Assembly (NCBI GenBank): GCA_018970245.1
Contig: JAGWWT010000003.1
Location: 3,519-67,518 of the forward strand
Direction of reading: 5' to 3'
Source of the DNA: Patescibacteria group bacterium
Lineage (GTDB): Bacteria; Patescibacteriota; Minisyncoccia; Phycocordibacterales; PALSA-1337
DNA: 64,000 bases
A program made the position numbers and the translations under genes. Shown piece after piece: positions 9,133 to 57,383 of this stretch. Positions within the stretch are counted from its first letter, which is position 1. The number at the start of each line of letters is the position of its first letter. Below the pieces are notes generated by a model that had not been told where the DNA came from, did not search any database, and saw only the letters and a list, made by a program, of their open reading frames with translations.

Positions 9133-9194
9133 GTTAGTTGCAGGTTACAAGTTACAGGTTACAGGTGTCACCTGCTACCTGCAACCTGTTACTT
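9133..9194. repeat. heptad-array palindromic element (GTTNCAR)n-(YTGNAAC)n, locus A (rpsC|rplP junction)
   Basis: gttagttgcaggttacaagttacaggttacaggtgtcacctgctacctgcaacctgttac. The two arms form a long imperfect hairpin. Confidence 0.75.
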
Positions 9195-9869
9195 TTAGGT
9201 GTTCTTCTGGTCTTTCTTGAATATCTCGCCCTTGTATATCCAAACCTTGATGCCGATATCGCCATAGGTCATATGCGCCTTCTCGCGGGCAAAATCGATG
9301 TCCGCACGGAGCGTCTGGAGCGGGATCTGGCCCTTCTTGAGCTCTTCGGTGCGGGCGATCTCGGCGCCTCCCAAACGGCCCGCCAAACGGATGCGGATGC
9401 CTTTGACTTCCTTATTGGCCATGACTTTCTCGATGGTCTGCTTCATGACGCGGCGGAAAGGCAAGCGCTTCTCCAGCGATTCAGCTACCATCATGCCGGC
9501 TATGGCCGCGTTCGACTCGGGATTCCTGACCTCTTCGATGTCTATCTTGAGCTCCTGTCCGTTCAAAGCGATGGACCTGTCATGAAGGAGCCGCATGATC
9601 TTGGCTCGGAGCTTGGTGACGCCGTCACCGGCCTTGCCTATGAGAAGACCGGGCCTGGAAGTCTTTATGATGATGCGCAGGGCCTTTTGGTTGCGCTCGA
9701 TCTCGACGCCGCCCACATAGTTGCTGCGGAGGGCCTCCGTGAGGAATTCGCGTATCACCAGATCGCCTTTCAGGGCCGAACGGTATCCTTTGTGCGAGGA
9801 GAACCAGCGGCTCTTCCAGTCGCGGATGATCCCTAGCCTATGAGAATATGGGTGGACGGTGTGGGACAT
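9195..9869 (-). CDS. rpsC: 30S ribosomal protein S3
   Basis: 224 aa with KH and S3-C domain sequence (GVEIERN...RIRLAGRLGGAEIARTE). Confidence 0.93.
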   Translation of the reverse strand: MSHTVHPYSHRLGIIRDWKSRWFSSHKGYRSALKGDLVIREFLTEALRSNYVGGVEIERNQKALRIIIKTSRPGLLIGKAGDGVTKLRAKIMRLLHDRSIALNGQELKIDIEEVRNPESNAAIAGMMVAESLEKRLPFRRVMKQTIEKVMANKEVKGIRIRLAGRLGGAEIARTEELKKGQIPLQTLRADIDFAREKAHMTYGDIGIKVWIYKGEIFKKDQKNT

Positions 9870-9872
9870 GTT

Positions 9873-9923
9873 AGTCGAAAGTCTATAAAGTCATAAAGTC
9901 GAAAGTCTATAAAGTCATAAAAT
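9873..9923 (-). repeat. GACTTT(AT) heptad direct-repeat leader element, copy 2 (rplV|rpsC junction)
   Basis: Sequence identical to 7781-7827, ending CUAAC-AUG. It begins immediately after the rplV stop codon. Confidence 0.7.
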
Positions 9924-10312
9924 CATTTTGCGGCAGCCTTCTTCTTGGCCGCGGGTTTAGCGGCCATCGCGCTCTTGGGCTGCTCGACCGGAGCAAGGAC
10001 GATGGACACGTGGCTCGTCCGCTTCTTTATCGGATGGGCTGAACCGCGCGACACCGGCATGAAGCGCTTGAGGGTGTACCCCTTATCGACCCGGATCTCC
10101 TTGATGAAAAGCATGCCCTTGTCGATGCTGTGGTTATGGGATGCGTTGGAGACTGCAGATCTCAAGAGGTCAGCCAGCGGAGACTTGGCTTTCTTCGAAG
10201 CCACGCCCAGTATGGCCTCGGCTTGCGAGACGCTCTTCCCGCGGATCATATCGGCCACAAGGCGGACCTTGCGGGGCGAGATTCGGTGGTTTTTAAGCGA
10301 GGCTGTGATCAT
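9923..10312 (-). CDS. rplV: 50S ribosomal protein L22
   Basis: 129 aa, ISPRKVRLVADMIRGKSVSQAEAIL. Confidence 0.9.
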   Translation of the reverse strand: MITASLKNHRISPRKVRLVADMIRGKSVSQAEAILGVASKKAKSPLADLLRSAVSNASHNHSIDKGMLFIKEIRVDKGYTLKRFMPVSRGSAHPIKKRTSHVSIVLAPVEQPKSAMAAKPAAKKKAAAK

Positions 10313-10318
10313 TTTCTA

Positions 10319-10669
10319 TTATTTCTTAGTTGCGGCTGTGGTCGCTGCCTCCTTGGCTGCCTTTGCGGCGTTGAGCTCGGCTTCCTTGGCCTTCATCTCG
10401 ATCTCCTTCTGCATCTTTCCGCCATGGCGGACGAACTTCCTGGTCGGCGAGAACTCGCCGAGCCTGTGGCCGACCATATCTTCGGTTACGAAAACGTCCA
10501 CATGGGACTTGCCATTATGGACGCCGAAGGTGAAACCGACCATCTCTGGAGCGATCTGGGAGCGGCGGGCCCACGTCTTTATCGTGCCCAAAGAGCCCGG
10601 CTTCTTGCCGGTGATCTTCTTCATGAGATTCTCGTCAACGTATGGGCCTTTCTTTAGGCTTCTGGACAT
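10319..10669 (-). CDS. rpsS: 30S ribosomal protein S19 (Lys/Ala-rich C-terminal tail)
   Basis: [19 protein letters not shown]...[18 protein letters not shown]. Confidence 0.92.
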
Positions 10670-10887
10670 GGATGTTTTATTTCGATCCTGGATCTCAGCT
10701 AGATGCCTCTGCGAACAGCTGCGTTTCGTAGCCGGTCAGAATAAAAAAGTGGCTCAAATGAGCGTGGTGGCATGTTAACAGAGCCGTCATTTTAAGTCAA
10801 GGAATCGGCCGCCAGCCTCCATTCAAAGCCATGGCTGCTGGTCCGAGATTTGATGCTCTCCCCCATCGGCGCTATAATCATGCGGAA

Positions 10888-12735: not shown

Positions 12736-12764
12736 GGTTACAGGTTGCAAGTCGCAGGTTACAC
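12736..12764. repeat. heptad-array element, short locus B (rplW 3' end|rplB start), GTTNCAR units only
   Basis: ggttacaggttgcaagtcgcaggttacac. Overlaps the last codons and stop codon of rplW. Confidence 0.55.
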
Positions 12765-13214
12765 GAAGTCGATCTTTTCGCCAGCCTTCACGGTCACAAG
12801 CGCCTTGCGCATGCCCGCGACTGTCCCCTTCTTGCCTTTGACGAAGACGTTCTTCATGGGGGTGTTGATCATGGCCACCTTGACTGGGGTGACCTTGTAG
12901 ATGGCCTTTATGGCCTTGGCGACGCTGGCCTTGTTGGCGTCCTTGTTGACCTCGAACGTGTAGACGTTCGACTGCGAAAGAAGGCCGGATTTCTCAGTCA
13001 CGCGCGGCCGGATGACCACCGAGGCGGCAACGGTCTCTTCTACGACCTTGAGCTTCGGGACGGCAACAGCCTTGGTCTTGGATCCGGACTGGACGGCTGC
13101 CTTCTGCTTCTTGGCGCCCTTGGCCGGCGACTTCTTATCGGCGACAGCCTTGGCCGCCTCGGCGCCCTGCTCGAGCTTCTCGTCTTTGCGCTTTTTGAAA
13201 CCGAATATGGCCAT
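12759..13214 (-). CDS. rplW: 50S ribosomal protein L23 with Lys/Ala-rich N-terminal extension
   Basis: C-terminal region ...NVYTFEVNKDANKASVAKAIKAIYKVTPVKVAMIN matches L23. Confidence 0.85.
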   Translation of the reverse strand: MAIFGFKKRKDEKLEQGAEAAKAVADKKSPAKGAKKQKAAVQSGSKTKAVAVPKLKVVEETVAASVVIRPRVTEKSGLLSQSNVYTFEVNKDANKASVAKAIKAIYKVTPVKVAMINTPMKNVFVKGKKGTVAGMRKALVTVKAGEKIDFV

Positions 13215-13879: not shown

Positions 13880-13957
13880 GGTCTCTGGATAAATAAAATA
13901 GGCTCTGTCGAGCGCGGAATGCATCTTAACAGAGCCGTCTTTTTAAGTCAACGGCTG

Positions 13958-14018
13958 GCGCGGTTTTCGCAAGGTCGAGCGCGGTTTTCGCAAGGTCGAG
14001 CGCGGTTTTCGCACGACA
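13958..14018. repeat. 21-bp tandem direct repeat, about 2.7 copies (gcgcggttttcgcaaggtcga)
   Basis: Read directly. Further small tandem duplications lie at 14264-14305 and 14306-14330. The ORF 13919..14329 (ARFSQGRARFSQGRARFS) is an artefact of these repeats. Confidence 0.8.
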
Positions 14019-14306: not shown

Positions 14307-14684
14307 ATGACTCCTTACATGACTATTGATACCGAATACGATGATGGCCTAGATTATTTTCGGCTAGCGATCTGGGATCTGCGCCTGAAAGCCACGAGAA
14401 GCCGGCTCGCGATCCTTGAAGCGTTATATGACGAATACTCTCCACCAGAATTATCAGCGAAAGAGATCGTTGCAAAGCTTCGAACTGCTAGCCGAGCCTC
14501 GATATATCGACATCTAAGAACGTTCTTGAAGGCCTCGCTCATAGAGATCATCAGAAAAGGCCCTGACGGCTCGATCTATAGATGGTGCGATAGCAGACGC
14601 TCGATCACTCGTATCGCAAAGCCTCTATCGGGCTCTTCCGAGAGGCCTGCCGAGCTGGATAGCCGCCGAAAACCAGCCCGATGA
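14307..14684 (+). CDS. Fur-family-like winged-helix regulator, possibly truncated or degenerate (no C-terminal His/Cys metal site)
   Basis: LKATRSRLAILEALYDEYSPPELSAKEIVAKLRTASRASIYRHLRTFLKASLIE resembles the Fur N-terminal DNA-binding domain. The 3' end overlaps the convergent FtsX gene by 80 nt. Confidence 0.4.
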   Translation: MTPYMTIDTEYDDGLDYFRLAIWDLRLKATRSRLAILEALYDEYSPPELSAKEIVAKLRTASRASIYRHLRTFLKASLIEIIRKGPDGSIYRWCDSRRSITRIAKPLSGSSERPAELDSRRKPAR

Positions 14685-15846
14685 GAGCTGAGACGCCGAA
14701 ACCTAGAGCCGCGCCATCCCACGGGAAGACGAATTGCCAGCTCACATTCAGGCCCTTGGACAAGCCGATCGATATGAGATACGCGAGCGACGCGCCGAGA
14801 AGGATCCCGACCACCCCGCCGATCACCGTCAGGAGCACGGCCTCTAGGAGGAATTGCTTCAATATATCGCCGTCGCGCGCACCGAGAGATTTGCGCAAGC
14901 CGATCTCGCGGGTGCGTTCGGTCACAGCGACTAGCATTATGTTCATGATGCCGACTCCGCCTACGAATAGAGCGATCGAAGCGACGGCGACGAGGAAATA
15001 CGTGAGCGCGCTGGTGATCGTACCGAGCCTGTTCGCCAGGTCTTGTTGGGTCTGAACCGTGAAATCGTCCTTGCTAGGATCGGTGATCCCATGCGATTCG
15101 CGCAAAGTGAGCGTTATGTCGTCGGCCGTCACCGGGACATTCTGGTCGCTGTCGGCCTGGATGATGAGGCGGTTATAGTACTTCTGGCCGAGCACATAAT
15201 CCATGGCTGTCGTATAAGGCATGATTACCATGCTATCGAAATTGAAGAGCGAGCCGCCGCCCGAGGGAGGCAGGGTGCCGACGACTTTGAAATTGCGGCC
15301 ATTGAGCCTGATCTTCTGCCCTATCGGGTCCTGATTTGTGTCCGCGAAGAGATGCTCGACGACCTTGGAGCCGATGACGACGACGTCATTCTTGGACAGG
15401 ACATCGTCTGTCGTGAAGAAATCGCCGGCAGGATGGAGGTCGAATATCTGCGCCAAAAGGTCGCTGCCCCCGAAGATTGTCACCTGGTAGACGTCAGAAC
15501 CGTACGAAGCCGACGATGCGCCGATCACGGTGGGCATTATGGCCTGAAGATGCGGGACATTGGCCTTGTTCTCGAGGGCGGTCACATCCTGCGGCTTGAG
15601 GCTGTCGCTGTATAGAGCGCTCACATCAGAGGGTCCGGTCGGCTCGCGTCCAGGGATGACGGCGATGGTGTTGGTGCCTAGCCCTTGGACTTGGCCGAGA
15701 ATGAGCGCCTGCGCACCCGCGCCGAGCGATATCACCAGCATGATTGCCGTGATGCCTATGACGATGCCAAGAATGGTCAGCGCAGATCGAGAGCGGTTCG
15801 TCGAGAGCCCCGTGAGCGCCGTTTTGAATGTGTGCTTCCAGGTCAT
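14605..15846 (-). CDS. ABC transporter permease, MacB/FtsX family (periplasmic MacB domain + FtsX TM bundle)
   Basis: 413 aa with an N-terminal TM, large extracytoplasmic domain and C-terminal FtsX helices ending ...GGYPARQASRKSPIEALRYE. Confidence 0.85.
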   Translation of the reverse strand: MTWKHTFKTALTGLSTNRSRSALTILGIVIGITAIMLVISLGAGAQALILGQVQGLGTNTIAVIPGREPTGPSDVSALYSDSLKPQDVTALENKANVPHLQAIMPTVIGASSASYGSDVYQVTIFGGSDLLAQIFDLHPAGDFFTTDDVLSKNDVVVIGSKVVEHLFADTNQDPIGQKIRLNGRNFKVVGTLPPSGGGSLFNFDSMVIMPYTTAMDYVLGQKYYNRLIIQADSDQNVPVTADDITLTLRESHGITDPSKDDFTVQTQQDLANRLGTITSALTYFLVAVASIALFVGGVGIMNIMLVAVTERTREIGLRKSLGARDGDILKQFLLEAVLLTVIGGVVGILLGASLAYLISIGLSKGLNVSWQFVFPWDGAALGFGVSALIGLVFGGYPARQASRKSPIEALRYE

Positions 15847-15862
15847 CCGCCTAATTCTAGCA

Positions 15863-17164
15863 TTAATAACCAGCTGGGGGCTTTACTTTATGGCCTAACA
15901 TATCGAGATCGAGTGGATTAATTGCTGCTTTTCGAGGCAGCTTTCTGGCTATTATATACCCGATAATGATAAATATAGCCATAAGAATCGCCGCAAAGCG
16001 ATAGTTCATGGCATCAGCTTTCGGAAGATACGTCACAGCTAGTCCCCACGAAAGCGGACCCATGAAAGTGGCGAAACGTTCCATTAAAGTGTAATAAGTG
16101 AACGAACGGTTGAGGAAGCTCCTGGGTGTGAGGTGCAAAAGATACGCGCGGGTTATCGTCCAGATCGAACCGTACCACACGCCCATGACCAAGCAGGCGA
16201 TAATGAAAGCGATGAAGCCGTGAACGGCCGCGAATATCGGCAGTATCACCATCCAGCCAGCAAGATTCCAAAGCAAAACTTTCTTGAAACCGAATCTATC
16301 AGCTAGCCATCCGCTTATCGGAGCACCTATCACTCCAGCGAAGATGATAGAGATCAAGACGAGGTTTTGGGTGTTGCCGGTTATGAACATGACTTTATCC
16401 ATCCAGATCGGAAAATTATTCGAGGCCGTGGTAACGGCGTCGTTGAAAAAGAAGTACGCCAAAAGGAAGAGGCCTACTCCCGGCAGGGTGCACATTTTGA
16501 TGAATGATCCAACCACATCTCTATATTCTTTGACGATATCTATCTTCACGCAGACTTTTGTCGACTTCTCTTTGAAGAATATGAGCATCGGCAATGAAAA
16601 TATCAGGAACAAGATAGCTGCCGGCATCAAGGTGGCAGCTCGACCGTCCGGACCGATAAGGACTAGCGCGCCGCTGGCGACCGGCAAAGAGACTAGGAGC
16701 CCGAATATCTGACCGGAATAATCGCCGAACATTCCCCAACCCGATGCCAAGCCATGTTTTTCGTGAACAGCGATATCTTTGAGGAGAGGGTTGTAATAGG
16801 TATAACAGAAGAGATAAAAATATGAAGCTAGCGAAAAAGTCACGGCCGAGAGCACATAATAGGCTGGATAAATTTCAGCAATGAATCCTGTCAGAAAGAA
16901 AAAGATGAAAGAAAAGATAGTCGTCACACGCAAACCAGGCATATTCACATTGAGCTTATCAGCGACGGACCCGGCGACTGGAACAGTCAGCAAAAATAGC
17001 AGGCTAGCTCCGACAAATGTCATATTGAACCAGATGTCTGGCACGCCACGATCGACAACGAGCCATTCGGAGTAATACAAGAAGAAGACGATCAGAGCGA
17101 TAGCATGCCCAAAATTGTACATGCTCCATAGGACGAGGCGCTTGATGTCGAGGCCGGGTTTCAT
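15863..17164 (-). CDS. MFS-type transporter (12 TM)
   Basis: 433-aa highly hydrophobic protein with an MFS-like helix pattern and a central loop. Confidence 0.65.
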   Translation of the reverse strand: MKPGLDIKRLVLWSMYNFGHAIALIVFFLYYSEWLVVDRGVPDIWFNMTFVGASLLFLLTVPVAGSVADKLNVNMPGLRVTTIFSFIFFFLTGFIAEIYPAYYVLSAVTFSLASYFYLFCYTYYNPLLKDIAVHEKHGLASGWGMFGDYSGQIFGLLVSLPVASGALVLIGPDGRAATLMPAAILFLIFSLPMLIFFKEKSTKVCVKIDIVKEYRDVVGSFIKMCTLPGVGLFLLAYFFFNDAVTTASNNFPIWMDKVMFITGNTQNLVLISIIFAGVIGAPISGWLADRFGFKKVLLWNLAGWMVILPIFAAVHGFIAFIIACLVMGVWYGSIWTITRAYLLHLTPRSFLNRSFTYYTLMERFATFMGPLSWGLAVTYLPKADAMNYRFAAILMAIFIIIGYIIARKLPRKAAINPLDLDMLGHKVKPPAGY

Positions 17165-17165
17165 G

Positions 17166-17708
17166 TCACCTTAAGTGTCCAAGTCCCTCTAAAACAACTG
17201 CGTTGGCCAGACCTTTCAAGGACTCTCCTCTTGTGACGATTTTTGATTTCCTGATACCGCTACCTAGAACGACGATATCTGTGTCAACGACTGCCTTATC
17301 AATCAGCACAGGCCAATCATTTGGCAGTCCGATTCCCGTGATGCCTCCATAATCCATTTTCGTTAGTGCGACAGCTTCATCCATAGGCGCGAACGAGACT
17401 TTGCGGGCACCCAAATGCCTGCGCACCAATCCATTCACGTCTGCTTTCGTCGTCGCCAATATCATGCAGGCCGCATACCAATTCTTATCTGCTCTAGAAG
17501 CTTTTACCACGACGCAATTCACGGTCTGATTCGGCGCGATCTTATAGTATTCACAAAAGGCTGCTGTATCTGAATATTGTGGATCGATCTCGGCCACGCT
17601 GAATCCAGATGCATTTGAAAGTGACGATATAGCCGTATGGACGGTTTCAGCCAGAAGCTCGCGGTGATCGACAGCTGGTATGAGTTTTAATTCACCAAGA
17701 GAGTTCAT
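17166..17708 (-). CDS. YbaK/ProX-family aminoacyl-tRNA deacylase domain protein
   Basis: ...RKVSFAPMDEAVALTKMDYGGITGIGLPNDWPVLIDKAVVDTDIVVLGSGIRKSKI matches the YbaK/EbsC fold signature. Confidence 0.55.
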   Translation of the reverse strand: MNSLGELKLIPAVDHRELLAETVHTAISSLSNASGFSVAEIDPQYSDTAAFCEYYKIAPNQTVNCVVVKASRADKNWYAACMILATTKADVNGLVRRHLGARKVSFAPMDEAVALTKMDYGGITGIGLPNDWPVLIDKAVVDTDIVVLGSGIRKSKIVTRGESLKGLANAVVLEGLGHLR

Positions 17709-17710
17709 GT

Positions 17711-18310
17711 CTAATCAAGAATAACAGTAACTTTTTCCAGCCAATATCGCAAAGGTTTTTCATTTGTGACTAGGAATGCCCTGCCGCCAAGCTTTTCAAA
17801 GTATCCGCAGGTTGTTGGGGAATCATCTATAAGAACCGAACTCCCAATCGTCGAACCAATCCTTTCAATGACATCAAGGTAAGCTTTCCCTTCATTGTCG
17901 TTTTTTGAATTTCCACGCGAATGAGAAGACTCTATGAGATCAAAATGTTCATCCAACTTAAGAGTTGGAACGGTGAATCGCTCGAAGCAGTCCATATTAT
18001 CCGTCATAAGAACGGCTATGAATTTGCTCCTCAAAGAATCGATTGTTTTCAGGTCAGTCTCATCGACTTTCATAGTCTTGCAATCTGAAACAAATAGATT
18101 CCAGAGCATTTCATAGTCAATGCCAAGTTCCTCCGACAGAAAACGATTAATATCTTCTGAAGAATATTTATTCCTCATCCAATCGTTTACTCTCTGTTTG
18201 TCGGAAAACAGAAGTTCTTGAATTTTCACATTATTTGTCTTATCTAAGCTTCTCCAAAACCTATCGAAACAAAGCGTACCGTCGAAGTCTACGAATAAGA
18301 CCGGCTTCAT
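17711..18310 (-). CDS. HAD-superfamily hydrolase (AT-rich, likely horizontally acquired)
   Basis: Motif I, FVDFDGTLC (DxDGT). The gene is markedly AT-rich relative to its flanks. Confidence 0.6.
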   Translation of the reverse strand: MKPVLFVDFDGTLCFDRFWRSLDKTNNVKIQELLFSDKQRVNDWMRNKYSSEDINRFLSEELGIDYEMLWNLFVSDCKTMKVDETDLKTIDSLRSKFIAVLMTDNMDCFERFTVPTLKLDEHFDLIESSHSRGNSKNDNEGKAYLDVIERIGSTIGSSVLIDDSPTTCGYFEKLGGRAFLVTNEKPLRYWLEKVTVILD

Positions 18311-18355
18311 GACTTAAGCATACTATCAAGCGTCGCCATCTGCTAATATTCTCAT

Positions 18356-19516
18356 ATGAAAAGAATCCACCCTGACGTCATTAGGCTCGGCCTTGTCAGC
18401 TTCCTCACGGATGTGAGCTCCGAAGCCATATTCTCTGTCTTCGCGGTCTTCTTCACGACGATAGCTGGTGCGTCGGCGGCATTGCTCGGAGTCGTCGAAG
18501 GCTTGTCTGATTTCTCTGCGTCATCTCTGGACTATGTTTCCGGTTGGATGTCGGACAAGACAGGCAGACGTAAATCGCTAGCTGTCGTTGGCTATGGATT
18601 TTCGACTCTGGCTAAATTCTTCCTGCTCGTTGCCAACTCGATCGCTTCTCTGTCTTTGTTCAGGATAGTCGAGCGCCTCGGCAAGAGCTTCCGCGGACCG
18701 CCGCGCGACGCCTGGCTAGCGGATGTCGCCGCCGAAGCCGATCGCGGATTCTCATTCGGCGTTCATAAAGCGATGGACAAAGCCGGCGCCGTTCTGGGCC
18801 CTGTATTAGCCTTCCTGCTTTTGGCCTGGCTCGGCCAAGATCTGCACGGATTCAAGGTGCTATTCATCTGCACGGCGATCGTAGCAGTCTTCGCTGTACT
18901 TTTCCTTCTCGTCATGAAGGACCGCCCCGGCGCGCCGCACCAGCGCGACAATATCTTCAAAGCCTGGCGATTCCTGTCCCCCGGCTTCAAGCTCTACCTC
19001 ATCCCAGCCGGAATATTCTCGCTCGCCTATTTCAGCTTCGGCTTCCTGCTCCTCAAGGCCTATGAGGTTGGGTTCTCGATCGCCGACGTCATCCTTCTGT
19101 ATGCCCTTTTCAATGTGGCCTTCGTGATAGCATCGATCCCGATCGGCAGCTTAGGAGACAGGATCGGCCGTCACTGGCTGATCAAAATGGAATATGCCAT
19201 CTATGCTCTCATGTCTTTAGGCTTCATCTTCGCCACGGATAAATGGGAGATCGTCGGGCTTTTCATAATCTTCGGCGTCTTCTACTCCATAGACGAGGCT
19301 CAGACGAAGGCCTTCATCGCCGACCTAGAGCCGGAACGCCGCGGCAGCGCCATCGGCCTCTATAATTTCTTCTCCGGCATCGTCTACCTGCCGGCTTCGC
19401 TCATCGCAGGCGCGCTTTGGACTGTTGATCCGTCTTACTCGTTCGTGTTCGCTTTGATAGTCTCAGTCATCGCTCTTCTCATATTCGCCGTCATGGATAG
19501 GAGGATCCTTCGTTGA
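18356..19516 (+). CDS. MFS transporter
   Basis: 386 aa, 12 predicted TM helices, MFS loop motif GWMSDKTGRRKSL. Confidence 0.75.
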   Translation: MKRIHPDVIRLGLVSFLTDVSSEAIFSVFAVFFTTIAGASAALLGVVEGLSDFSASSLDYVSGWMSDKTGRRKSLAVVGYGFSTLAKFFLLVANSIASLSLFRIVERLGKSFRGPPRDAWLADVAAEADRGFSFGVHKAMDKAGAVLGPVLAFLLLAWLGQDLHGFKVLFICTAIVAVFAVLFLLVMKDRPGAPHQRDNIFKAWRFLSPGFKLYLIPAGIFSLAYFSFGFLLLKAYEVGFSIADVILLYALFNVAFVIASIPIGSLGDRIGRHWLIKMEYAIYALMSLGFIFATDKWEIVGLFIIFGVFYSIDEAQTKAFIADLEPERRGSAIGLYNFFSGIVYLPASLIAGALWTVDPSYSFVFALIVSVIALLIFAVMDRRILR

Positions 19517-19565
19517 CATTTTCCTGGTCCGGAGTAGTTTGTCACCAGAACAGAAAGGTCAAAAT

Positions 19566-20261
19566 ATGAGAAATGTGATCATCGCCGGAAAAGGCAACAT
19601 GGCGCAGCTCTTCACGACGGAGCTCCAACATATGGGGTACGACGTCTATGATTTCGAGCATCTTCCTGATGGCTACGTGGCCGGATTGGACAGTTCCGAA
19701 ACAGTCGGGTTGCACGTGGGAAGCGGCAAGGATCTGGACCGATTCGTGGCCAGATGCGCCGATCTCGAAATACCAGTCCTCCAAGGATCGACTGGCCAAA
19801 AGATAGACGAGGCCTGGCCTGGCTTGGTGGTCAACGCAGATAACTTCGCCTTGCCGATCCTGCGCGTGATCCAGCTCCTGTCCAAGATCGCCGGTAGCCT
19901 CGGTCCCTCGCAAGGCTTGAACATGAAAGCTGGCCTGGCCGAATCCCATCAGTGGTCAAAGAAATCTGTGCCTGGCACAGCCAAGCGGATGGCTGCTGCG
20001 ATCGGCGTCGAAGAATCGGACATAAAGTCCGTGCGCGATCCTGACCTGCAGATGGCCATGGGAGTGCCAGCCGATGCGCTAGATGCTCACGGCCACCACT
20101 TCCTGACTTGGACAGGCTTCGGAGTGCAGATCCAACTTACCACGAGGATCAACGGCCGCGGCGCCTATTTCGAAGGCGGCCTGCACTTGCTGCAGATACT
20201 GCACGACAGACGCCATGAGAGAGGGGTGCACGACGTCCTCGACTTCCTCGACCGGAAGTGA
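19566..20261 (+). CDS. dapB: 4-hydroxy-tetrahydrodipicolinate reductase-like (DapB family)
   Basis: The DapB signature region ESHQWSKKSVPGTAKRMAAAIG matches the (L/I)HHxxKxDAPSGTA block, with N-terminal NAD-binding VIIAGKGNMAQ. Start placed at the ATG MRNVIIAG; the ORF extends to 19539. Confidence 0.6.
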   Translation: MRNVIIAGKGNMAQLFTTELQHMGYDVYDFEHLPDGYVAGLDSSETVGLHVGSGKDLDRFVARCADLEIPVLQGSTGQKIDEAWPGLVVNADNFALPILRVIQLLSKIAGSLGPSQGLNMKAGLAESHQWSKKSVPGTAKRMAAAIGVEESDIKSVRDPDLQMAMGVPADALDAHGHHFLTWTGFGVQIQLTTRINGRGAYFEGGLHLLQILHDRRHERGVHDVLDFLDRK

Positions 20262-20311
20262 GGCGGGGCGCTCCAGATGACAGTTCCAAGCTCGCAGCGA
20301 TGCGGGCGTTT

Positions 20312-21043
20312 TTATTTCACAAAGAAAGTCGCTCTGACCGTCACCATGACGTTCTTTTCGATGGATGAGGTGTCGTATTGGCCGTAATCGGAGACATCTA
20401 TCGAGTTCGGCGCAAGGACCTGGACGACGCCGCTCGAAGCCGCCTTGAGAGCGCCTACCCTTGTGCCGGCGCTGCTGGCGATCTGCTCTGCCCTGTTCCT
20501 CGCATCCGTGAGCGCGGCGCCGAGGAGAGAGACGCGCAAGGCGGCCAGCTTCGAAGAGAAATACTGCGGCTGGTCGGCCATGACCAAGATACCCTTCGAA
20601 GTCAGCGCCTCGGTCGATTTCGAGAGCTTGTCTATGATCTGCGGATCGTCGGACTGGACAGTCACTCTCTGGCTCACCTCGAACTGCCTCGGTCCGCCGC
20701 TTTGGTCGGTCTTGTAGTTATACTGCTGCATCGTCATCGGCGCGGCTATGGTTATGTCAGCGTCCGGGATCCCGTTATCGGAAAGGAACTTCTTGGCTGC
20801 CGCAAGATCCGAAGCGAGCCCTGAATATGCGCCCTCCAAGTAGCCTTCCGTGGCCTGGCGCGACAGCGTGAATGACCATGAAGCATTGTCGGCTGAGACC
20901 TTTTGGGAAGCCGACCCTGTGACCACCAGGGTGTTATCGAAGCTGCGGACCGTGATAAAGGCGTAGACGCCTATGAGGGACGCGACCACGAGGGCTGCGC
21001 CCAAAATGATCGCCGGAGCGATCAAAGAGTTCTTATTTTTCAT
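20312..21043 (-). CDS. SIMPL/DUF541-family periplasmic protein (YggE-like), N-terminal TM anchor
   Basis: 243 aa with TM anchor and SIMPL-like pattern (...TVRATFFVK C-terminus). Confidence 0.5.
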   Translation of the reverse strand: MKNKNSLIAPAIILGAALVVASLIGVYAFITVRSFDNTLVVTGSASQKVSADNASWSFTLSRQATEGYLEGAYSGLASDLAAAKKFLSDNGIPDADITIAAPMTMQQYNYKTDQSGGPRQFEVSQRVTVQSDDPQIIDKLSKSTEALTSKGILVMADQPQYFSSKLAALRVSLLGAALTDARNRAEQIASSAGTRVGALKAASSGVVQVLAPNSIDVSDYGQYDTSSIEKNVMVTVRATFFVK

Positions 21044-21061
21044 GAGCAGATTGTACCACCT

Positions 21062-21802
21062 TCACTTGACGAATTCATCATCGGCAGAAAGCCGGCTATG
21101 CACACGCGTGTCGCTCTCCATCTCGCCGTCCATGAGACGGATTATGCGCTCGGCGTGGTCTGCGGTAGAGGTCTCGTGGGTGATGAGGACTATCGTCTTC
21201 CCGTGCTCCTCATTCAGGTGCTGCATGATGGCCATGACGGTCTTGCCGGATTTGCTGTCGAGATTGCCGGTCGGCTCATCCGCGAAGATGACCTCTGGAT
21301 CAGTCACCAGCGCGCGAGCGATGGCCACTCTCTGGCGCTCGCCGCCGGAGAGCTCAGACTGGCCGTGATGCATGCGATGGGCCAGACCGACCGATTCGAC
21401 TGCTTCGCGCGCGCGATCGTCCCATTCATGCTCTGGTATCTTCGAATAATAGAGAGGCAGTTTGACGTTGTCGATGACGCTCGTCCGCGGCAGAAGGTTG
21501 AAGGCCTGGAAGACGAAGCCGATTTCCCTGTTGCGCAGATCGGCAAGCTCGTCTGAAGTGTATGAGGTCACATTCTTGCCGTTGAAACGGTAGCTGCCAG
21601 AGGTCGGCTCGTCGAGAAGGCCCAAAAGGTGCAGAAGGGTCGATTTCCCGCTCCCTGATGGCCCCATGATGGCCAAGAATTGGCCGCGCGGCACGTCGAA
21701 GCTGACCTTATCCAGAGCGACAGTCGGCGTCTCGCTGCCGTCTCCGTAGGCCTTGCGGAGATTCTTGACGGAGATGACGCTTTCGGCTTCTTTGGCAGTC
21801 AT
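21062..21802 (-). CDS. ABC transporter ATP-binding protein (MacB/LolD-type)
   Basis: Walker A GPSGSGKST; signature LSGGERQRVAIARAL; Walker B IFADEPTGNLD. Confidence 0.9.
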   Translation of the reverse strand: MTAKEAESVISVKNLRKAYGDGSETPTVALDKVSFDVPRGQFLAIMGPSGSGKSTLLHLLGLLDEPTSGSYRFNGKNVTSYTSDELADLRNREIGFVFQAFNLLPRTSVIDNVKLPLYYSKIPEHEWDDRAREAVESVGLAHRMHHGQSELSGGERQRVAIARALVTDPEVIFADEPTGNLDSKSGKTVMAIMQHLNEEHGKTIVLITHETSTADHAERIIRLMDGEMESDTRVHSRLSADDEFVK

Positions 21803-22404
21803 TTGAATAGGGCTTTGATGTCTCCGGCGAGCTCGGGAAATTCCGAACCAGTGAAATGTCCTCGTCCTTCGAACTTCTTTAATATCGCATTCGGCAAGCG
21901 CTCTTTGTAAGATTCAGCATCTTTGAAGTCGACATAGGGATCATCCGTGCTGTGGTATATGGTGATCCTGCCTCCCTGTTCAGAGAGCAGATCGAGGCTT
22001 TTTGGCAGGATAAAATCTGCCATATCCTTCTCATTCGGATCGTTCGCAAATGGCGCAGCCACCAATAATACGGCCTCCAGTCTCATTTTCAATTTATTTT
22101 CCGACAGATACTTGGCTAAGAAGATGCCTCCCAATGAATGCCCCACGAGCACCGAGTTGTCTTTAATCTGCGGCACGATCTTATCGAACCAGATCTTCCA
22201 CTCGAGGTACTTGGCATTAGCACTGTTCGGCATTCTTGGCGTATATACTAGAAAGTCAGTACCTAGCAATGCTTCTAATGTTTCTCGCCACCTCTTCCTT
22301 CTGGCATCTTCAAGGTCGAATTCCTCCGCCTTCAGGTCGGCGATGTACTTCTCGTATGTTTCCGGCGTATCGCCGCCGTGGATGACGATGACTTGGCGCT
22401 TCAT
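21799..22404 (-). CDS. alpha/beta-fold serine hydrolase (RBBP9/YdeN-like)
   Basis: Nucleophile elbow GHSLGG; about 200 aa. Confidence 0.6.
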   Translation of the reverse strand: MKRQVIVIHGGDTPETYEKYIADLKAEEFDLEDARRKRWRETLEALLGTDFLVYTPRMPNSANAKYLEWKIWFDKIVPQIKDNSVLVGHSLGGIFLAKYLSENKLKMRLEAVLLVAAPFANDPNEKDMADFILPKSLDLLSEQGGRITIYHSTDDPYVDFKDAESYKERLPNAILKKFEGRGHFTGSEFPELAGDIKALFK

Positions 22405-22416
22405 GATGTCAGTATA

Positions 22417-22674
22417 TCACTTATACAATTCTGGATGCGTGCCTATCGCGACGATAAGGACACTGCCCTTCTCCTTATAATAGATCGCCCGATAGTTACC
22501 AGTGATGTTGATGCTTCGGCAGCCAGAATATGCCCGTTCGACAGAATGATTGTTCAAAATAACGTGATAGGGTTCACGCAGGAACAGTGCAATACGCTCG
22601 TCAAACTGCTCCCGAAGCCTTGGGGACAATTTCTTCAATTTCTTTTTTGCGTCGGAGTGAAGAAAAACGTGCAT
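22417..22674 (-). CDS. relE: type II toxin, RelE/ParE superfamily (YafQ-like mRNA interferase)
   Basis: 85 aa; C-terminus GCRSINITGNYRAIYYKEKGSVLIVAIGTHPELYK matches the RelE/YafQ pattern. It lies 3 nt downstream of a DinJ-like gene. Confidence 0.7.
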   Translation of the reverse strand: MHVFLHSDAKKKLKKLSPRLREQFDERIALFLREPYHVILNNHSVERAYSGCRSINITGNYRAIYYKEKGSVLIVAIGTHPELYK

Positions 22675-22677
22675 CTC

Positions 22678-22977: not shown

Positions 22978-22986
22978 GTCTGACTA

Positions 22987-23024
22987 GACGCATATATATC
23001 TTATATATTACAAATATATATGTC
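22987..23024. promoter_or_regulatory. imperfect inverted repeat (GACGCATATATAT - N14 - ATATATATGTC) upstream of the TA operon; candidate autoregulatory operator/promoter
   Basis: Read directly at 22987-23024. It is AT-rich with TATA-like boxes and sits 10-50 bp upstream of the antitoxin start. Confidence 0.4.
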
Positions 23025-23480: not shown

Positions 23481-23489
23481 GATTGAATC

Positions 23490-25708: not shown

Positions 25709-25716
25709 GGGATTAA

Positions 25717-25766
25717 GGTTACAGGTCACAGGTTACAGGTGTCACCTGCTACCTGTTACTTGCTAC
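25717..25766. repeat. heptad-array palindromic element, locus C (rpsJ 3' end|rplC)
   Basis: ggttacaggtcacaggttacaggtgtcacctgctacctgttacttgctac. Overlaps the rpsJ stop codon. Confidence 0.75.
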
Positions 25767-26164: not shown

Positions 26165-26170
26165 ATCAAT

Positions 26171-26222
26171 GGTGACAGGTTACAAGTATCAGGTTTCAAC
26201 CTGCTACCTGTCACCTGCAACT
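26171..26222. repeat. heptad-array palindromic element, locus D (tuf|rpsJ junction)
   Basis: ggtgacaggttacaagtatcaggtttcaacctgctacctgtcacctgcaac. Confidence 0.75.
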
Positions 26223-26225
26223 TCG

Positions 26226-36270: not shown

Positions 36271-36324
36271 GAGATTAAGTCTATGAAGTCTATAAAGTCC
36301 GTAAAGTCCTTGAAGTCCTTAAGG
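36271..36324 (-). repeat. GACTT heptad direct-repeat leader element, copy 3 (upstream of fusA)
   Basis: mRNA sense CCUUAAGGACUUCAAGGACUUUACGGACUUUAUAGACUUCAUAGACUUAAUCUC-AUG. Confidence 0.65.
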
Positions 36325-38895: not shown

Positions 38896-38904
38896 GAGAT
38901 TGAT

Positions 38905-38976
38905 GGTTACAAGTTCCAGGTTACAAGTTGCAAGTTACAGGTGAAGATTGTGACCTGTTACTTGTTGCTTGTTACC
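38905..38976. repeat. heptad-array palindromic element, locus E (rpsL 3' end|rpsG start)
   Basis: ggttacaagttccaggttacaagttgcaagttacaggtgaagattgtgacctgttacttgttgcttgttacc. The YTGNAAC arm encodes the rpsL C-terminal codons. Confidence 0.75.
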
Positions 38977-39380: not shown

Positions 39381-39470
39381 TGTGATTACAAGTGACAGTA
39401 GCAAGTGACAGGGTTACAAGTTACAGGTGACAAGTTGCATTTTTTACCTGCTACCTGTGACCTGCTACTT
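39381..39470. repeat. heptad-array palindromic element, locus F (largest, about 90 bp; immediately upstream of the rpsL ATG)
   Basis: tgtgattacaagtgacagtagcaagtgacagggttacaagttacaggtgacaagttgcattttttacctgctacctgtgacctgctactt. Confidence 0.75.
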
Positions 39471-55098: not shown

Positions 55099-55246
55099 AT
55101 CGCTCCTATTGTACCAAAATCCGCGTCAAAATGGGCATGCCCAGGCATTGTTCATAGCCGGCTTTCAGATGAAAAAACCGCGAGCCAGAGAGGCCCGCGG
55201 GCGAAGCGCTGATGAAGCAAGCTGTTATCGGGACGTCAGGCAGACA

Positions 55247-55882
55247 TCACACCGGTTCCGATCCGTGCGGATGGTTCCAGAGGACCAGCCCGCACTCCTT
55301 CGGCACCTCTAGTCGCCTGGAATACACGTGGGCATGGACTTGGAAGTCGAACCCGTCCACAGGCCGGTGTATGGCCAGTATGCTGGGGACTTTGCGCGGG
55401 TCGTCCTCGAGCGGCTTATGGAGGACCAACAGCCACTCGAATCCGAGCGATTCCAGATCCGCGTCCGAGATCAGCAGCCTTAACGGCAGGCAGACCTCTG
55501 GGAACGGCAGGCTGAATCCGAGGACATCGGCCACGGCTTCGACGCTGTCGATGTCGAGCCGATCGTTCTCCAGCATCCCTACGGCCGGGAGGACGATAAG
55601 ATCATGATGGAACCAGCGTCCCATCATCTCTTTGTTCTCCGGCGTGACCTCTCCGAAACGAGGATGCGCGAATACGGCCTTTGCTTCTGGACTGACGCTG
55701 ACGCCATTCCTTGCCGCAAGCTCCAGGAGGGCGTCCCCCCGGAGCGGCAGCAAGCCTGCCGTCGGGACGCGCACAGACCATTGCCCGCGTATCTCAGACC
55801 AAATGCGGCAATCCTGGTGCCATAACCGCGCTCCTCGCACGGCTTTGCTCTCATCTGCTTCTAATGTGCTCATGATACTCAT
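55247..55882 (-). CDS. hypothetical protein upstream of pilB
   Basis: 211 aa; I recognise no motifs. Confidence 0.4.
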   Translation of the reverse strand: MSIMSTLEADESKAVRGARLWHQDCRIWSEIRGQWSVRVPTAGLLPLRGDALLELAARNGVSVSPEAKAVFAHPRFGEVTPENKEMMGRWFHHDLIVLPAVGMLENDRLDIDSVEAVADVLGFSLPFPEVCLPLRLLISDADLESLGFEWLLVLHKPLEDDPRKVPSILAIHRPVDGFDFQVHAHVYSRRLEVPKECGLVLWNHPHGSEPV

Positions 55883-56161
55883 CGTTACCTTTCGTTCTTC
55901 AGTCCTTGTACGGCAGCGATGACTTAATCAGGTCCATTGAACTGCGCCAACAGATCCAACGGATACTGCGTATAATTCTAACAGATCTGTCAAAAAGTCA
56001 AGGCCGGCGGATGCGTGAATAAGCTGTGGTTTTCATGTGAATAGCCGAGCCGCAGCCGGACCTCTTTACAAATTTAAAATTTGTGGTAATATCCATCGCG
56101 GCCCGCCTTCATAGGCGGAAAACAAAATAACGACAGAAAGTCAGAACATTGGAAATAAAGT

Positions 56162-57175
56162 ATGAGATCGAAAATCACTTCGGTATTGACAGCGGCCGTC
56201 TTAGCCGCGTCCGTGGCCCTGGCATTTAACGCCAAAGCTGATACTAACATGCAATATGTGGCTCGTCTCCGCCCTGGCGTGAACGTCAAGATGGAATGCG
56301 CCGTGCTGGAGAATCAAGCCATCTCTGCGGGACCGACGGTATTATGCATATCAGGGCTCGCCCACAATGGCGAAACATTCCGACAGCTCGCCGAAGACCT
56401 CATGGCCAAAGGCGCGAAGCGCGCCATCCTATTCGAGCTTCCAGGCCGTGAAGGCAGCGGTTTGCCATTCGGACGGAACGATGCGCCGGAGTTCGGCGAT
56501 CTGACCGTCGAGGATTATGCCAATGCAGTCATAGACTGCTTGACCCAGTGTGAGGAGCAGGGCACCCCTGTCTCGGTCATAGTCGCCCATTCTATGGGCG
56601 GTCTGATCGTCCAGGTCGCCCAGGAAAAGCTCCTGTCGAGCGGATCCTCGCTTCATTGCGCTTACGGCGTCAATGAAGCCGTACTGCTGTCCAGCGCCCC
56701 GCCGGCGGGAGTGGTCAACCCCGTATTCGAGGCTGGAGCAGGGACCCAGTTGGTCAACGCGTTCGCCACAGATGTACCAGGTCTAGGCCACATAGTCTAC
56801 GTGCCATCCTCCTACATCCCCCTGCTATTCATGTCCTATCCTCTATATCAGCCGGTGGCCGACGCGGTCTCCCAAGACCAACTCGACGCGCTAGCTCCTT
56901 ACGAGGAATCGTATGCGGCCTCGATAGAGACCGCTGGGCCGAGCTCAGAGCGGCCGACGGTGCGCGCCGGCGCTTTCTCTTCAGCCAATGGCACTGCGCT
57001 CCAAGTGATCGTCGGATCGGAAGACGTGTTCAACACGGCTTCCGTCCAGCAGTCCTTGTCTGACTATCTCACGGGCGCTTCGCAGCCGATCACCGTCATA
57101 TCCGCCGGTTCGCCGGTCCATGATCAGTACTGGACCGAACCCGATCAAGTGGCCGCCGCTATCGATCTGAACTAA
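56162..57175 (+). CDS. secreted alpha/beta hydrolase (lipase/esterase-like)
   Basis: Signal peptide, nucleophile elbow AHSMGG. Confidence 0.7.
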   Translation: MRSKITSVLTAAVLAASVALAFNAKADTNMQYVARLRPGVNVKMECAVLENQAISAGPTVLCISGLAHNGETFRQLAEDLMAKGAKRAILFELPGREGSGLPFGRNDAPEFGDLTVEDYANAVIDCLTQCEEQGTPVSVIVAHSMGGLIVQVAQEKLLSSGSSLHCAYGVNEAVLLSSAPPAGVVNPVFEAGAGTQLVNAFATDVPGLGHIVYVPSSYIPLLFMSYPLYQPVADAVSQDQLDALAPYEESYAASIETAGPSSERPTVRAGAFSSANGTALQVIVGSEDVFNTASVQQSLSDYLTGASQPITVISAGSPVHDQYWTEPDQVAAAIDLN

Positions 57176-57206
57176 TCAGAGCGTCCTAACGCCATATCAT
57201 CCATAG

Positions 57207-57236
57207 CCCGTCTCGCTCCTCGAGACGGGTTTTTTC
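57207..57236 (+). terminator. rho-independent terminator after the lipase gene
   Basis: CCCGUCUCG-CUCCU-CGAGACGGG followed by UUUUUUCUUGCAUUUUU. Confidence 0.8.
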
Positions 57237-57310
57237 TTGCATTTTTCCATAGATATGGTATGCTTTGGTCCATCAAGCACATGTTCGCCGGAAAGCGGAC
57301 ATTTTTATTA

Positions 57311-57383
57311 GGTTACAGGTAGCAGGTAGAAAAATGCAACTTGTAACTTGTCACTTGCAACCTGCCACTTGTCGCCTGCAACT
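57311..57383. repeat. heptad-array palindromic element, locus G (upstream of nusA)
   Basis: ggttacaggtagcaggtagaaaaatgcaacttgtaacttgtcacttgcaacctgccacttgtcgcctgcaactg. Confidence 0.7.

Follow-up and report, generated by a model that had tools for sequence, protein, structure and literature searches.

The window (the entire stretch of 64,000 nucleotides that was analyzed) contains seven loci, A to G, at which 7-nt units are repeated in front of a gene. A preliminary description had presented them as a family of palindromic elements at start codons. We asked whether these repeats are an unusual aid to starting translation or simply repeat growth that the genome tolerates.

Seven heptad loci in front of translation genes

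The seven loci are real, far beyond chance. When we scanned both strands for three CYTGYNA units followed by CYTG, with up to two mismatches, all 23 matches in the window fell inside the seven loci, and 100 dinucleotide shuffles gave no matches (0 expected). In an independent check, TRF listed arrays of period 7 at five loci (A, C, E, F, and G) and none at B and D. Read as mRNA, the elements have (RGTNRCA)n as their 5' arm and (CYTGYNA)n as the arm adjoining the ATG.

The genes 3' of the seven loci (on the minus strand for A to F) encode L16, L2, L3, S10, S7, S12, and NusA, which are all translation genes; all gene names were confirmed by Pfam. In the window, heptad elements precede 7 of 25 translation genes and 0 of 33 others (p = 0.0016). 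If any periodic leader is counted, the numbers are 10 of 25 and 2 of 33. The elements thus lie in transcribed spacers and leaders of translation genes and, as the preliminary description had expected, are not randomly placed. It also put every copy within 10 nt of an ATG. This holds for rplP, rplB, rplC, rpsJ, rpsG, and rpsL (0, 8, 8, 6, 9, and 0 nt, respectively, from the element ends as drawn there), but not for nusA: element G has about three units in its 5' arm and seven in its 3' arm, followed by an A-rich spacer of 39 nt before the ATG. Elements B, C, and E do overlap the upstream stop codon, as claimed for several copies: in C, the rpsJ stop (TAG) is within the foot of the 5' arm, and in E, the 5' arm encodes the end of rpsL (...VTSNK*).

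Table 1. Repeat elements and related features in the window (folding energies in kcal/mol; z relative to shuffled sequences)
Feature	Position	Strand	Location	Remarks
Heptad hairpin A	9133..9194	-	fills whole rpsC-rplP spacer	dG -30.5, z -6.0; Pfam S3, L16
Direct-only heptad array B	12736..12764	-	overlaps rplW stop; end 8 nt from rplB ATG	dG -3.2, z +1.5
Heptad hairpin C	25709..25766	-	fills rpsJ-rplC spacer	dG -21.7, z -3.6
Heptad hairpin D	26165..26225	-	fills tuf-rpsJ spacer	dG -31.3, z -4.9
Heptad hairpin E	38896..38976	-	between rpsL and rpsG	dG -25.0, z -5.0
Heptad element F	39381..39470	-	rpsL 5' leader, ends at ATG	dG -30.1, z -3.0
Heptad element G	57311..57383	+	nusA 5' leader	dG -26.6, z -2.1; Pfam NusA
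Second-family direct array	7778..7834	-	overlaps rplN stop, ends CGACTAAC-ATG of rplX	unstructured, z +1.2
Second-family direct array	9870..9926	-	between rplV and rpsC, ends CGACTAAC-ATG	z +0.3
Second-family direct array	36271..36322	-	fusA leader	GGACTTCAA GGACTTTAC GGACTTTATA GACTTCATA GACTTAATCTC
Exact 20-nt duplication, AAGGCCTAATACAATCCCAT twice	3021..3060	-	covers rpsE stop and rplO start codon	100% match
Short periodic leader, GGTAGTCAGTATTTGGTATTTAGTAT...	4604..4642	-	5' of rplF	period 7, score 0.79; weak class member
Degenerate second-family leader, GACTTTATTAGATTTTAAGACTTTGACTTT-ATG	60740..60773	+	5' of H+-pyrophosphatase gene	

Folding and the Shine-Dalgarno-less context

The loci had been said to share a hairpin architecture. 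On the mRNA strand, six of the seven do form hairpins (dG between -21.7 and -31.3 kcal/mol; z between -2.1 and -6.0 relative to shuffled sequences), but locus B does not, even with 180 nt of context folded (z 0.09): it has units of the start-proximal type alone (CCTGCGA CTTGCAA CCTGTAA), without a complementary arm. In hairpin A, the 5' arm AAGTAAC AGGTTGC AGGTAGC AGGTGAC faces the 3' arm CCTGTAA CCTGTAA CTTGTAA CCTGCAA, which is followed by CTAAC-ATG; A and C have 28 identical nt in common. In the predicted fold of D, the rpsJ start codon is inside the outer helix. The 3' arm of E has five units and leaves about 20 nt unpaired 5' of the rpsG ATG. The symmetric hairpins in the window (A, C, D, and E) are all intercistronic, and the 5' UTR copies are asymmetric, with 3 versus 7-8 units (about three and about eight in F).

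The clade is Shine-Dalgarno (SD)-less. SD-like 4-mers precede 12 of 58 starts in the window, which is not enriched over the background of 0.26, and SD-like motifs occur in just 12 of 465 r-protein leaders across relatives. The anti-SD motif is missing in about half of Parcubacteria (PMC9297842). The preliminary description was therefore right about the genome, but the idea that its AGGU-rich units are SD-like found no support.

Relatives have other units at the same junctions

The heptad palindrome is only one member of a wider class of short tandem repeats that evolve fast. Within the window, a second family of GACTTTAT arrays, with units of 8-9 nt, precedes rplX, rpsC, and fusA; none of these arrays forms a hairpin. 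The rplX array reads GACTTTAAG GACTTTATA GACTTTC GACTTTAT ...; it and the rpsC copy have 50 identical nt in common.

In related Paceibacteria, which we sampled around r-protein clusters, arrays or hairpins of other 6-10-nt units occupy the same junctions. Long leaders were periodic in 81 of 281 cases versus 15 of 281 shuffles, and 7 was the commonest period (38 of 81). TRF listed 114 arrays outside long ORFs in 738 kb of relatives' loci, and 90 of them are upstream of r-protein or elongation factor (EF) starts; judged by eye, 0 of 26 non-translation genes within the relatives' r-protein clusters had an array. The rplW-rplB junction has direct-only arrays in at least six genomes, with other units in L123, L125, L129, L134, and L152, and hairpins of differing units recur at tuf-rpsJ and rpsJ-rplC. 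Across 47 intercistronic hairpins of about 26 pairs, pairing begins a median of 0 nt past the stop codon (IQR -4.5 to 3.5) and ends a median of 7 nt 5' of the ATG (IQR 5 to 10.5).

From this anatomy, the positions, the gene association, the SD-less context, and the strand bias and turnover described below, we infer ribosome melting, coupling, and a standby function: tentatively, we favor the reading that these are mRNA leader elements for SD-independent initiation and translational coupling. The elements would be transcribed leader or intercistronic parts of translation-gene mRNAs in a Parcubacteria/Paceibacteria lineage that does without SD pairing. The G-poor array adjoining the start, (CYUGYNA)n here and other 6-10-nt units elsewhere, may be an unstructured landing or standby stretch that receives the 30S subunit or S1 independently of an SD sequence. 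In intercistronic copies, an inverted array of the same units upstream would pair with this array along the whole spacer (50-100 nt), giving an imperfect hairpin (about 26 bp) whose 5' foot is at the upstream stop and whose 3' foot is about 7 nt short of the next ATG. On reaching the end of the upstream gene, a ribosome would melt the foot and expose the landing stretch beside itself, so that the downstream gene would be translated by coupling or re-initiation; otherwise the stretch would be partly occluded. In the first-cistron leaders of rpsL and nusA, the start-proximal array is far longer than its complement, so several units would stay single-stranded.

Turnover, and whether the repeats are simply tolerated

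Differences between strains are of whole units. Hairpin A is unchanged in one sister assembly, D is identical in L001 and L002, and the fusA array is identical in L210; E differs from sister strains by a few substitutions, and C has one additional GGTAACA unit in sister strain L002. In L210 and L211, element F is wholly remodeled between identical flanks, with the layout of 3-4 versus 8 units retained. Under the favored reading, replication slippage and recombination would grow, shrink, and homogenize the arrays, which would make them strain-variable tuning elements and not fixed signals.

The same turnover, with its whole-unit indels and complete remodeling, would also be expected of simple-sequence repeats without any function of their own. 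By this account, which we consider somewhat unlikely, the G-poor leaders of highly expressed genes are prone to slippage; arrays expand in some genomes, a second arm arises as a copy of the first through quasi-palindrome (template-switch) mutation, and the survivors either fold away, which keeps stop and start effectively close, or stay unstructured. The units are unrelated from genome to genome, and the distribution is patchy: periodic leaders number 5-8 in certain genomes and are absent from others, yet all are SD-less. Many equally SD-less relatives have plain spacers of 2-30 nt at the same junctions, and some genomes are without any arrays, so the element is dispensable and is not required for initiation. 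Also, CYTGYNA heptamer arrays are found in many phyla, before genes with no common function (in a scan of public genomes), which matches the sporadic, heptamer-dominated character of long simple sequence repeats. Because so many SD-less relatives lack the elements, and because we found no compensatory pairing (see below), tolerated repeats are a serious rival. However, they would not readily explain the strong restriction to translation-gene leaders in mixed gene neighborhoods, the recurrence of junction-specific architecture with different units (at rplW-rplB, tuf-rpsJ, and rpsJ-rplC), or the 3-versus-8 layout of the rpsL leader, which survives replacement of its sequence. The tight stop/start geometry also argues against them, although a survival filter would yield the same geometry.

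Does the RNA matter?

The suggestion of a cis-acting RNA element held up in part. On the negative side, when the units of the 3' arm were put in other orders, no compensatory arrangement of variable positions emerged: permuted orders were never less stable for A, C, and D, and average values were obtained for E, for G, and for F as it stands in L210. Nor did we find a G-U folding advantage for the sense strand (the window was mixed; in relatives, 46 favored sense versus 37 antisense). As sense and antisense folds are equally stable, nothing shows that pairing was selected in RNA instead of being a by-product of inverted arrays. On the positive side, direct-only arrays contain little G in the mRNA (7% G; G<C in 30 versus 9), and this strand-specific depletion is a sign of constraint at the transcript level. 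Similarly, hairpins tend to have their G-rich arm on the 5' side and their G-poor arm adjoining the ATG (57 versus 21 overall; 30 versus 7 for periodic hairpins).

The strand bias of direct-only arrays relative to the gene also argues against a role in DNA, whether as promoters, as pause or cruciform elements, or as arrays of operators to which a regulator binds. In favor of such a role, palindromes are the same on both strands, sense and antisense fold equally, and some regulators are described as binding heptamer direct repeats (SARP-LAL is an example). But the elements lie within operons, from stop to start; their hypervariability among strains and the diversity of units speak against specific operators; and we saw no match to a promoter or terminator consensus inside F and G, or by eye at the other five loci. 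We consider a DNA-level role very improbable.

If the hairpins act in RNA, they might instead be sites for RNase III-type cleavage or barriers to 3' exonucleases, with imperfect stems of 20-30 bp. Long r-protein transcripts would be cut into stable segments, possibly with very short downstream leaders. The stems of about 26 bp are intercistronic, and the lack of a U-tract means that they are not intrinsic terminators; with the foot about 7 nt from the ATG, cleavage there would yield near-leaderless mRNAs. Leaderless mRNAs need no SD pairing. Yet direct-only arrays at equivalent positions could not act in this way, and there is no conserved loop, cleavage motif, or covariation, so processing seems unlikely.

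Unit length might instead reflect a single-strand RNA-binding protein with a unit-sized site, for which the arrays would be a multi-site platform; the protein would be a chaperone or recruiter, and the unit would co-evolve with it. Such a protein could be of the cold-shock-domain type (about 7 nt per domain), a KH protein, or S1, which in CPR has 3-4 domains (PMC9297842). The predominance of period 7, the pyrimidine/A-rich, G-poor arrays, and the long stretches shared by A and C and by two second-family copies agree with a platform, as does the finding that loci of one genome often share one or two unit types that differ between genomes. S1- and Csp-type candidates have already been proposed for TAACTGA repeats (PMC4679880). 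Against this, two or three unrelated unit types coexist within one genome (the window; L123), and units differ between strains with identical proteins, which makes the idea quite improbable.

Comparison with known systems

The closest precedent is the TAACTGA heptamer. These direct repeats are found in marine Beggiatoaceae and some Cyanobacteria and Bacteroidetes (MacGregor 2015, PMC4679880), where they replace SD sequences directly upstream of starts, including in r-protein operons; they were proposed to act in translation through S1, Csp, or CsrA (PMC4679880). Both systems have tandem heptamers of variable copy number a few nucleotides 5' of start codons that lack an SD sequence, at positions internal to ribosomal-protein operons (there, fusA, L3, S4, and S1) (PMC4679880). 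However, the unit here is CYTGYNA, among many others; the phylum is Patescibacteria; the link to translation genes is strong, whereas TAACTGA repeats have no overall functional pattern; and most copies are paired with an inverted array in a stop-to-start hairpin, whereas TAACTGA has 169 direct sets and one inverted.

Translational coupling via RNA structure operates in E. coli r-protein operons and in RNA phage MS2, and gives stoichiometric synthesis. If the favored reading holds, here too a ribosome translating the upstream gene would open a structure over the downstream initiation region. In those cases the sequences are unique and an SD site is used, whereas here the stem consists of tandem units, takes up the whole spacer, evolves fast, and, if it works at all, would be SD-independent. 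There is also a purely functional analogy to ribosome shunting, or termination and re-initiation, in eukaryotic viruses (the CaMV 35S leader): a stable stem has a stop immediately ahead of its foot and a start or landing site immediately beyond, and so draws the two close to each other. That system has no sequence or evolutionary relation to ours, and in our reading the ribosome would melt the stem, not bypass it.

REP/BIME elements and MITEs are also imperfect intergenic palindromes with several copies per genome. The REP consensus, of about 35 nt, is fixed and has a GTAG head; REPs are found mostly downstream of genes and are associated with RAYT transposases. MITEs are of constant length, with terminal inverted repeats and target duplications. 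We rejected both identities: the elements here vary in the number of 7-nt units, lack fixed ends, and abut start codons. We found no match of the elements to CRISPR, REPs, MITEs, or terminators, and no Rfam family, in agreement with the preliminary description for CRISPR and REPs.

Finally, long simple sequence repeats are sporadic and dominated by heptamers (Mrazek 2007, as cited in PMC4679880), and cyanobacteria have heptamer repeats (STRR), such as TTTTGAA near start codons in Nostoc (bioRxiv 10.1101/2022.06.06.494920). Our elements resemble these in the dominance of heptamers, sporadic phylogeny, intergenic location, and slippage-driven change, but no gene class or stop/start geometry is consistent among those repeats. 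Where CYTGYNA arrays occur in other phyla, the genes that they precede are unrelated to translation. Within the window, the clearest non-translation gene with second-family units encodes the H+-pyrophosphatase.

Heptad Repeats in the Window

The window, from a Patescibacteria (Paceibacterota/Parcubacteria) genome, has a G+C content of 55%. It carries a str/S10/spc ribosomal-protein cluster, split by unrelated genes, on the minus strand, with nusA on the plus strand. The preliminary description reported hairpin-forming palindromes of 7-nt units at the start codons of seven highly expressed genes. All seven loci exist, and our reading of their sequence matches that description: in the sense of the mRNA, an element consists of (RGTNRCA)n and then (CYTGYNA)n. 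When we searched the window with a degenerate pattern of 3.5 CYTGYNA units, allowing up to two mismatches, all 23 matches fell within the seven loci, and 100 shuffled sequences gave no match.

Two parts of the description need qualification. First, six of the elements end 0 to 9 nt from the ATG (those of rplP, rplB, rplC, rpsJ, rpsG, and rpsL), but the nusA copy is 39 nt away. Second, six of the loci do fold into imperfect hairpins (dG of -21.7 to -31.3 kcal/mol, z of -2.1 to -6.0), but the rplB copy (locus B) has the start-proximal array only and forms no hairpin. We looked for a hidden 5' arm of locus B inside rplW, and found just a 9-bp pairing at chance level (z = 0.09).

The heptads are one form of a larger class of periodic leaders. 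Direct arrays of 8- to 9-nt units (GACTTTAT, GACTTTATA, or GACTTTC), ending in CGACTAAC-ATG, precede rplX, rpsC, and fusA; folding predicts that these are unstructured. They contain mini-ORFs (ATG ACT TTA TAG), which we dismissed because the equivalent arrays in one of the relatives (L129) lack them. Weaker periodic leaders precede rplF and the gene for an H+-pyrophosphatase, and an exact duplication of 20 nt spans the rpsE stop codon and the rplO start codon. Across the window, heptads precede 7 of 25 translation genes and none of 33 other genes (P = 0.0016); for periodic leaders of any kind, the counts are 10 of 25 and 2 of 33 (P = 0.0025).

The Same Junctions in Related Genomes

We then considered S10 neighborhoods in sister assemblies and on 80 metagenome contigs, whose S10 proteins are 65 to 98% identical. 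The equivalent junctions in these relatives have analogous elements with very different units, including GACTTTAN, CTGATTA, ATTCGTNN, TTACTNN, CCTTTNA, AGCTAAC, and CTAGGTA. We collected 465 distinct leaders of ribosomal-protein and elongation-factor genes, 281 of which are at least 30 nt long. Of these 281 leaders, 81 are periodic, as compared to 15 after shuffling, and the most common period is 7. Significant hairpins are found in 88 leaders, and 39 are both periodic and hairpin forming. In the 47 hairpins that lie between cistrons, which have about 26 pairs, the first paired base follows the upstream stop codon at a median of 0 nt, and the last paired base precedes the ATG by a median of 7 nt, so the hairpin fills the entire spacer and draws the stop and start codons together. 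At the rplW-rplB junction, at least six genomes have direct-only arrays, with differing units.

The association with translation genes was also seen in an unbiased analysis: TRF found 151 arrays in 738 kb of the relatives' loci, of which 37 are within long ORFs, and 90 of the other 114 are upstream of ribosomal-protein or elongation-factor starts. None of the 26 non-translation genes inside the relatives' ribosomal-protein clusters has such a leader. In two relatives (L137 and L141), the rpsJ-rplC spacer holds a long, nonrepetitive, multistem structure (GAATGGTAGCG...CGCTACCATTC) where others have hairpins of tandem units.

Turnover between Strains and Loci

The element between rpsJ and rplC (locus C) has one additional 7-nt unit in a sister strain (L002), while the flanking DNA and the proteins are identical. 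The rpsL leader (locus F) is wholly rewritten in two other sister strains (L210 and L211), with its layout of 3 to 4 units versus about 8 being kept. Other copies are identical between strains. Variation in unit number between close strains is the behavior of long simple sequence repeats of the contingency type. It bears on the main rival to a functional reading, namely that the repeats are generated by slippage and are tolerated only where they are unstructured or folded out of the way; we judge this to be somewhat unlikely. Loci A and C (the rplP and rplC leaders) have 28 identical nucleotides in common, and two of the 8- to 9-nt arrays have 50; the shared sequence may have arisen by copying or gene conversion from one locus to another.

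In a single metagenome-assembled genome (GCA_028865675.1), the rpsL-rpsG element is present as two alleles (L210 versus L212), one of which is identical to the window's. This indicates a mixture of strains in that bin.

Comparison to Known Elements

The elements had been described as neither CRISPR repeats nor standard REP elements, and their anatomy bears this out. CRISPR arrays have repeats of 24 to 48 nt and unique spacers of similar size, whereas the 7-nt units are contiguous, without spacers. REP elements and BIMEs are palindromes of fixed length with a conserved head and are mostly 3' of genes, whereas these elements vary in unit number, lack a common terminal motif, and are 5' of start codons. 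By eye, the copies in the window have no flanking duplications that would indicate MITEs, and all of them are in leaders of translation genes. Intrinsic terminators, with a GC-rich stem and a U-tract, were excluded: the stems precede CTAAC-ATG and similar sequences, and no T run follows. Terminator scans, which covered the surroundings of loci F and G (the rpsL and nusA leaders), flagged other hairpins there and not these elements. Promoters were rejected given the anatomy and consensus scans around the same two loci. Rfam gave no match at any of the loci, either at the gathering score or at E ≤ 1; at E ≤ 1 there were just two weak and unrelated matches elsewhere in the window. No tRNA or tmRNA genes were found in the window.

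The nearest parallel is the TAACTGA heptamer direct repeats that MacGregor described in the Beggiatoaceae. These lie a few nucleotides upstream of start codons, in place of SD sites, and also occur inside ribosomal-protein operons; a role in translation has been proposed for them (PMC4679880). The general class behind them is long simple sequence repeats dominated by heptamers. The Beggiatoaceae repeats and those of the window are both contiguous 7-nt units close to start codons, and a canonical ribosome-binding site is rare at both. The units differ, however (CYTGYNA/RGTNRCA and GACTTTAT in the window), and CTAACTA-like units are present in only one relative, in the rplW leader of L129. Also, locus B and the 8- to 9-nt arrays are direct, but each of the other six heptad loci includes an inverted arm. 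Nostoc has been reported to have heptamer repeats close to start codons as well (bioRxiv 10.1101/2022.06.06.494920).

A scan of public genomes found CYTGYNA arrays in many phyla, with a modest preference for sites just upstream of ORFs in the sense orientation (14 versus 4 within 15 nt). The genes that follow these arrays have nothing to do with translation and no common function, so the link to translation genes does not generalize. Inverted CYTGYNA arrays were seen in Acidobacteriota, Chloroflexota, Cyanobacteria, Bacteroidota, Proteobacteria, and others. A nonexhaustive keyword search of the literature found no prior description of a hairpin-bridged, junction-conserved, sequence-fluid form in ribosomal-protein operons of Patescibacteria.

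Relation to Shine-Dalgarno Sites

The anti-SD motif is missing in about half of Parcubacteria, and S1 proteins of the CPR have only 3 to 4 domains (PMC9297842). In the window, SD-like motifs are not enriched (12 of 58 starts, against a background of 0.26), and none of the 10 genes led by heptads or by 8- to 9-nt arrays has an SD-like 4-mer. In the relatives, 12 of 465 leaders have SD-like motifs. The relatives offer no contrast in SD usage against which to compare the presence of arrays, as the sampled clade is entirely SD-less. The distribution of arrays across these SD-less genomes is patchy, so initiation does not require them.

We also considered whether AGGT in the 5' arm might act as an SD-like site or whether the units might pair with the 3' end of 16S rRNA. 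Judging from the sequences, this is unlikely because the units are diverse both within and between genomes. Neither the window nor the fetched loci contain rRNA. Another reading, in which these diverse units would serve as platforms for protein binding, strikes us as improbable.

Strand and Pairing Tests

On the mRNA strand, direct-only arrays are strongly depleted in G (7% G, with G less common than C in 30 versus 9), and this is the sole strand-specific signal. In hairpins, the arm beside the ATG tends to be the G-poor one, with the G-rich arm on its 5' side (57 versus 21), and CYTGYNA palindromes in other phyla have the same polarity (27 versus 2). Because a palindrome reads alike on both strands, this shows only a preferred polarity and not selection on the mRNA strand. 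Among the 88 hairpins from relatives, folding of the sense and antisense strands gave no bias (46 versus 37), and the results in the window were mixed, so this test of G-U pairing cannot separate a role in RNA from one in DNA. We consider roles at the DNA level to be highly improbable.

When we permuted the order of the units, the hairpins at loci A, C, and D (the rplP, rplC, and rpsJ leaders) were never weakened, and the native order was the least stable of all. Neither this test nor the comparison of strands gave the signature of a structured RNA under selection for pairing. Thus, the pairing is due to the constant part of the units and not to compensatory fitting. Hairpins that act in RNA processing or stability seem quite unlikely.

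Possible Roles in Translation

The elements bear on how translation starts in Parcubacteria that lack the anti-SD, above all on internal ribosomal-protein cistrons. They occupy the exact position of an SD site, turn up throughout the clade at equivalent junctions with other sequences, and link stop codon, hairpin, and start codon in a precise geometry. We tentatively favor a role in the mRNA, at somewhat less than even odds, in which a landing stretch and a hairpin lock give translational coupling. The ribosome would land, independently of an SD site, on the G-poor, start-proximal array; the inverted array would be a lock that is opened by the ribosome terminating on the upstream gene; and in the asymmetric versions in 5' untranslated regions, some of the array would stay exposed.

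A more specific proposal, which we view as unlikely, is a dedicated device for SD-independent reinitiation in anti-SD-less Parcubacteria. The stem would re-pair in shifted registers, holding the stop and start codons a few nucleotides apart so that the ribosome is handed over directly, and the units might also be read by a single-strand RNA-binding protein (CSD or S1) with a 7-nt footprint. Such a hand-over would be the bacterial counterpart of termination-reinitiation or shunting.

If the elements are functional, then they would represent a new way of coupling translation and would supply a function for the heptamer repeats of bacteria, which have long been a puzzle. If they are neutral, then they are a clean case of structure-filtered repeat expansion within essential operons. 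They would also be useful for telling strains apart, and would give rise to errors in the assembly and annotation of CPR genomes.

Neighboring Features

Other features of the window
Feature	Position	Strand	Remarks
13-nt repeat, 4.4 copies	1197-1253		Downstream of secY; unlike the leader arrays
L15, N-terminal extension	2561-3022	minus	35-75 residues before Pfam domain
S5, N-terminal extension	3052-3699	minus	35-75 residues before Pfam domain
Promoter-like motif TTGACTT-N9/10-GGCTCTGTTAA(C/G)ATG	10775-10805, 13925-13955	minus	Before rplD and rpsS
L23, N-terminal extension	12759-13214	minus	35-75 residues before Pfam domain
Perfect 21-nt tandem repeat, 2.7 copies	13958-14013		Directly upstream of the rplD promoter-like site; unlike the leader arrays
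Interruptions of S10/str cluster	14605-25040, 27606-34104, 36391-38348		Inserted genes include a MacB/FtsX ABC system, PG-binding/PKD proteins, and a ParE-like toxin
S10, N-terminal extension	25763-26164	minus	35-75 residues before Pfam domain
tuf leader	27414-27520	minus	No tandem array; stem GGCTC...GAGCC, then AGCACTAAATCAATAAT-ATG
rpsL 5' untranslated region upstream of locus F	39480-39560	minus	GAGTAATCG...GGCTCGCTCGAGCC-like stem
Terminator-like hairpin with T-run	57281-57302	plus	In the nusA leader, directly before locus G
Gene after nusA	58703-60673	plus	RNase R/II-type exoribonuclease (RNB, CSD, and S1 domains), not infB

The promoter-like motif is also found in two relatives (L123 and L125), which suggests that copies of one promoter restart the fragmented ribosomal-protein cluster. 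Relatives have other insertions at the points where the S10/str cluster is broken. The hairpin in the nusA leader might attenuate the nusA transcript. The rpsL 5' untranslated region is conserved with L123 (about 1210-1290 of that locus), and its stem may be that of a structured leader of the S12/S7 operon with no relation to the heptads. The stem of the tuf leader is kept in L123, L125, and L129.
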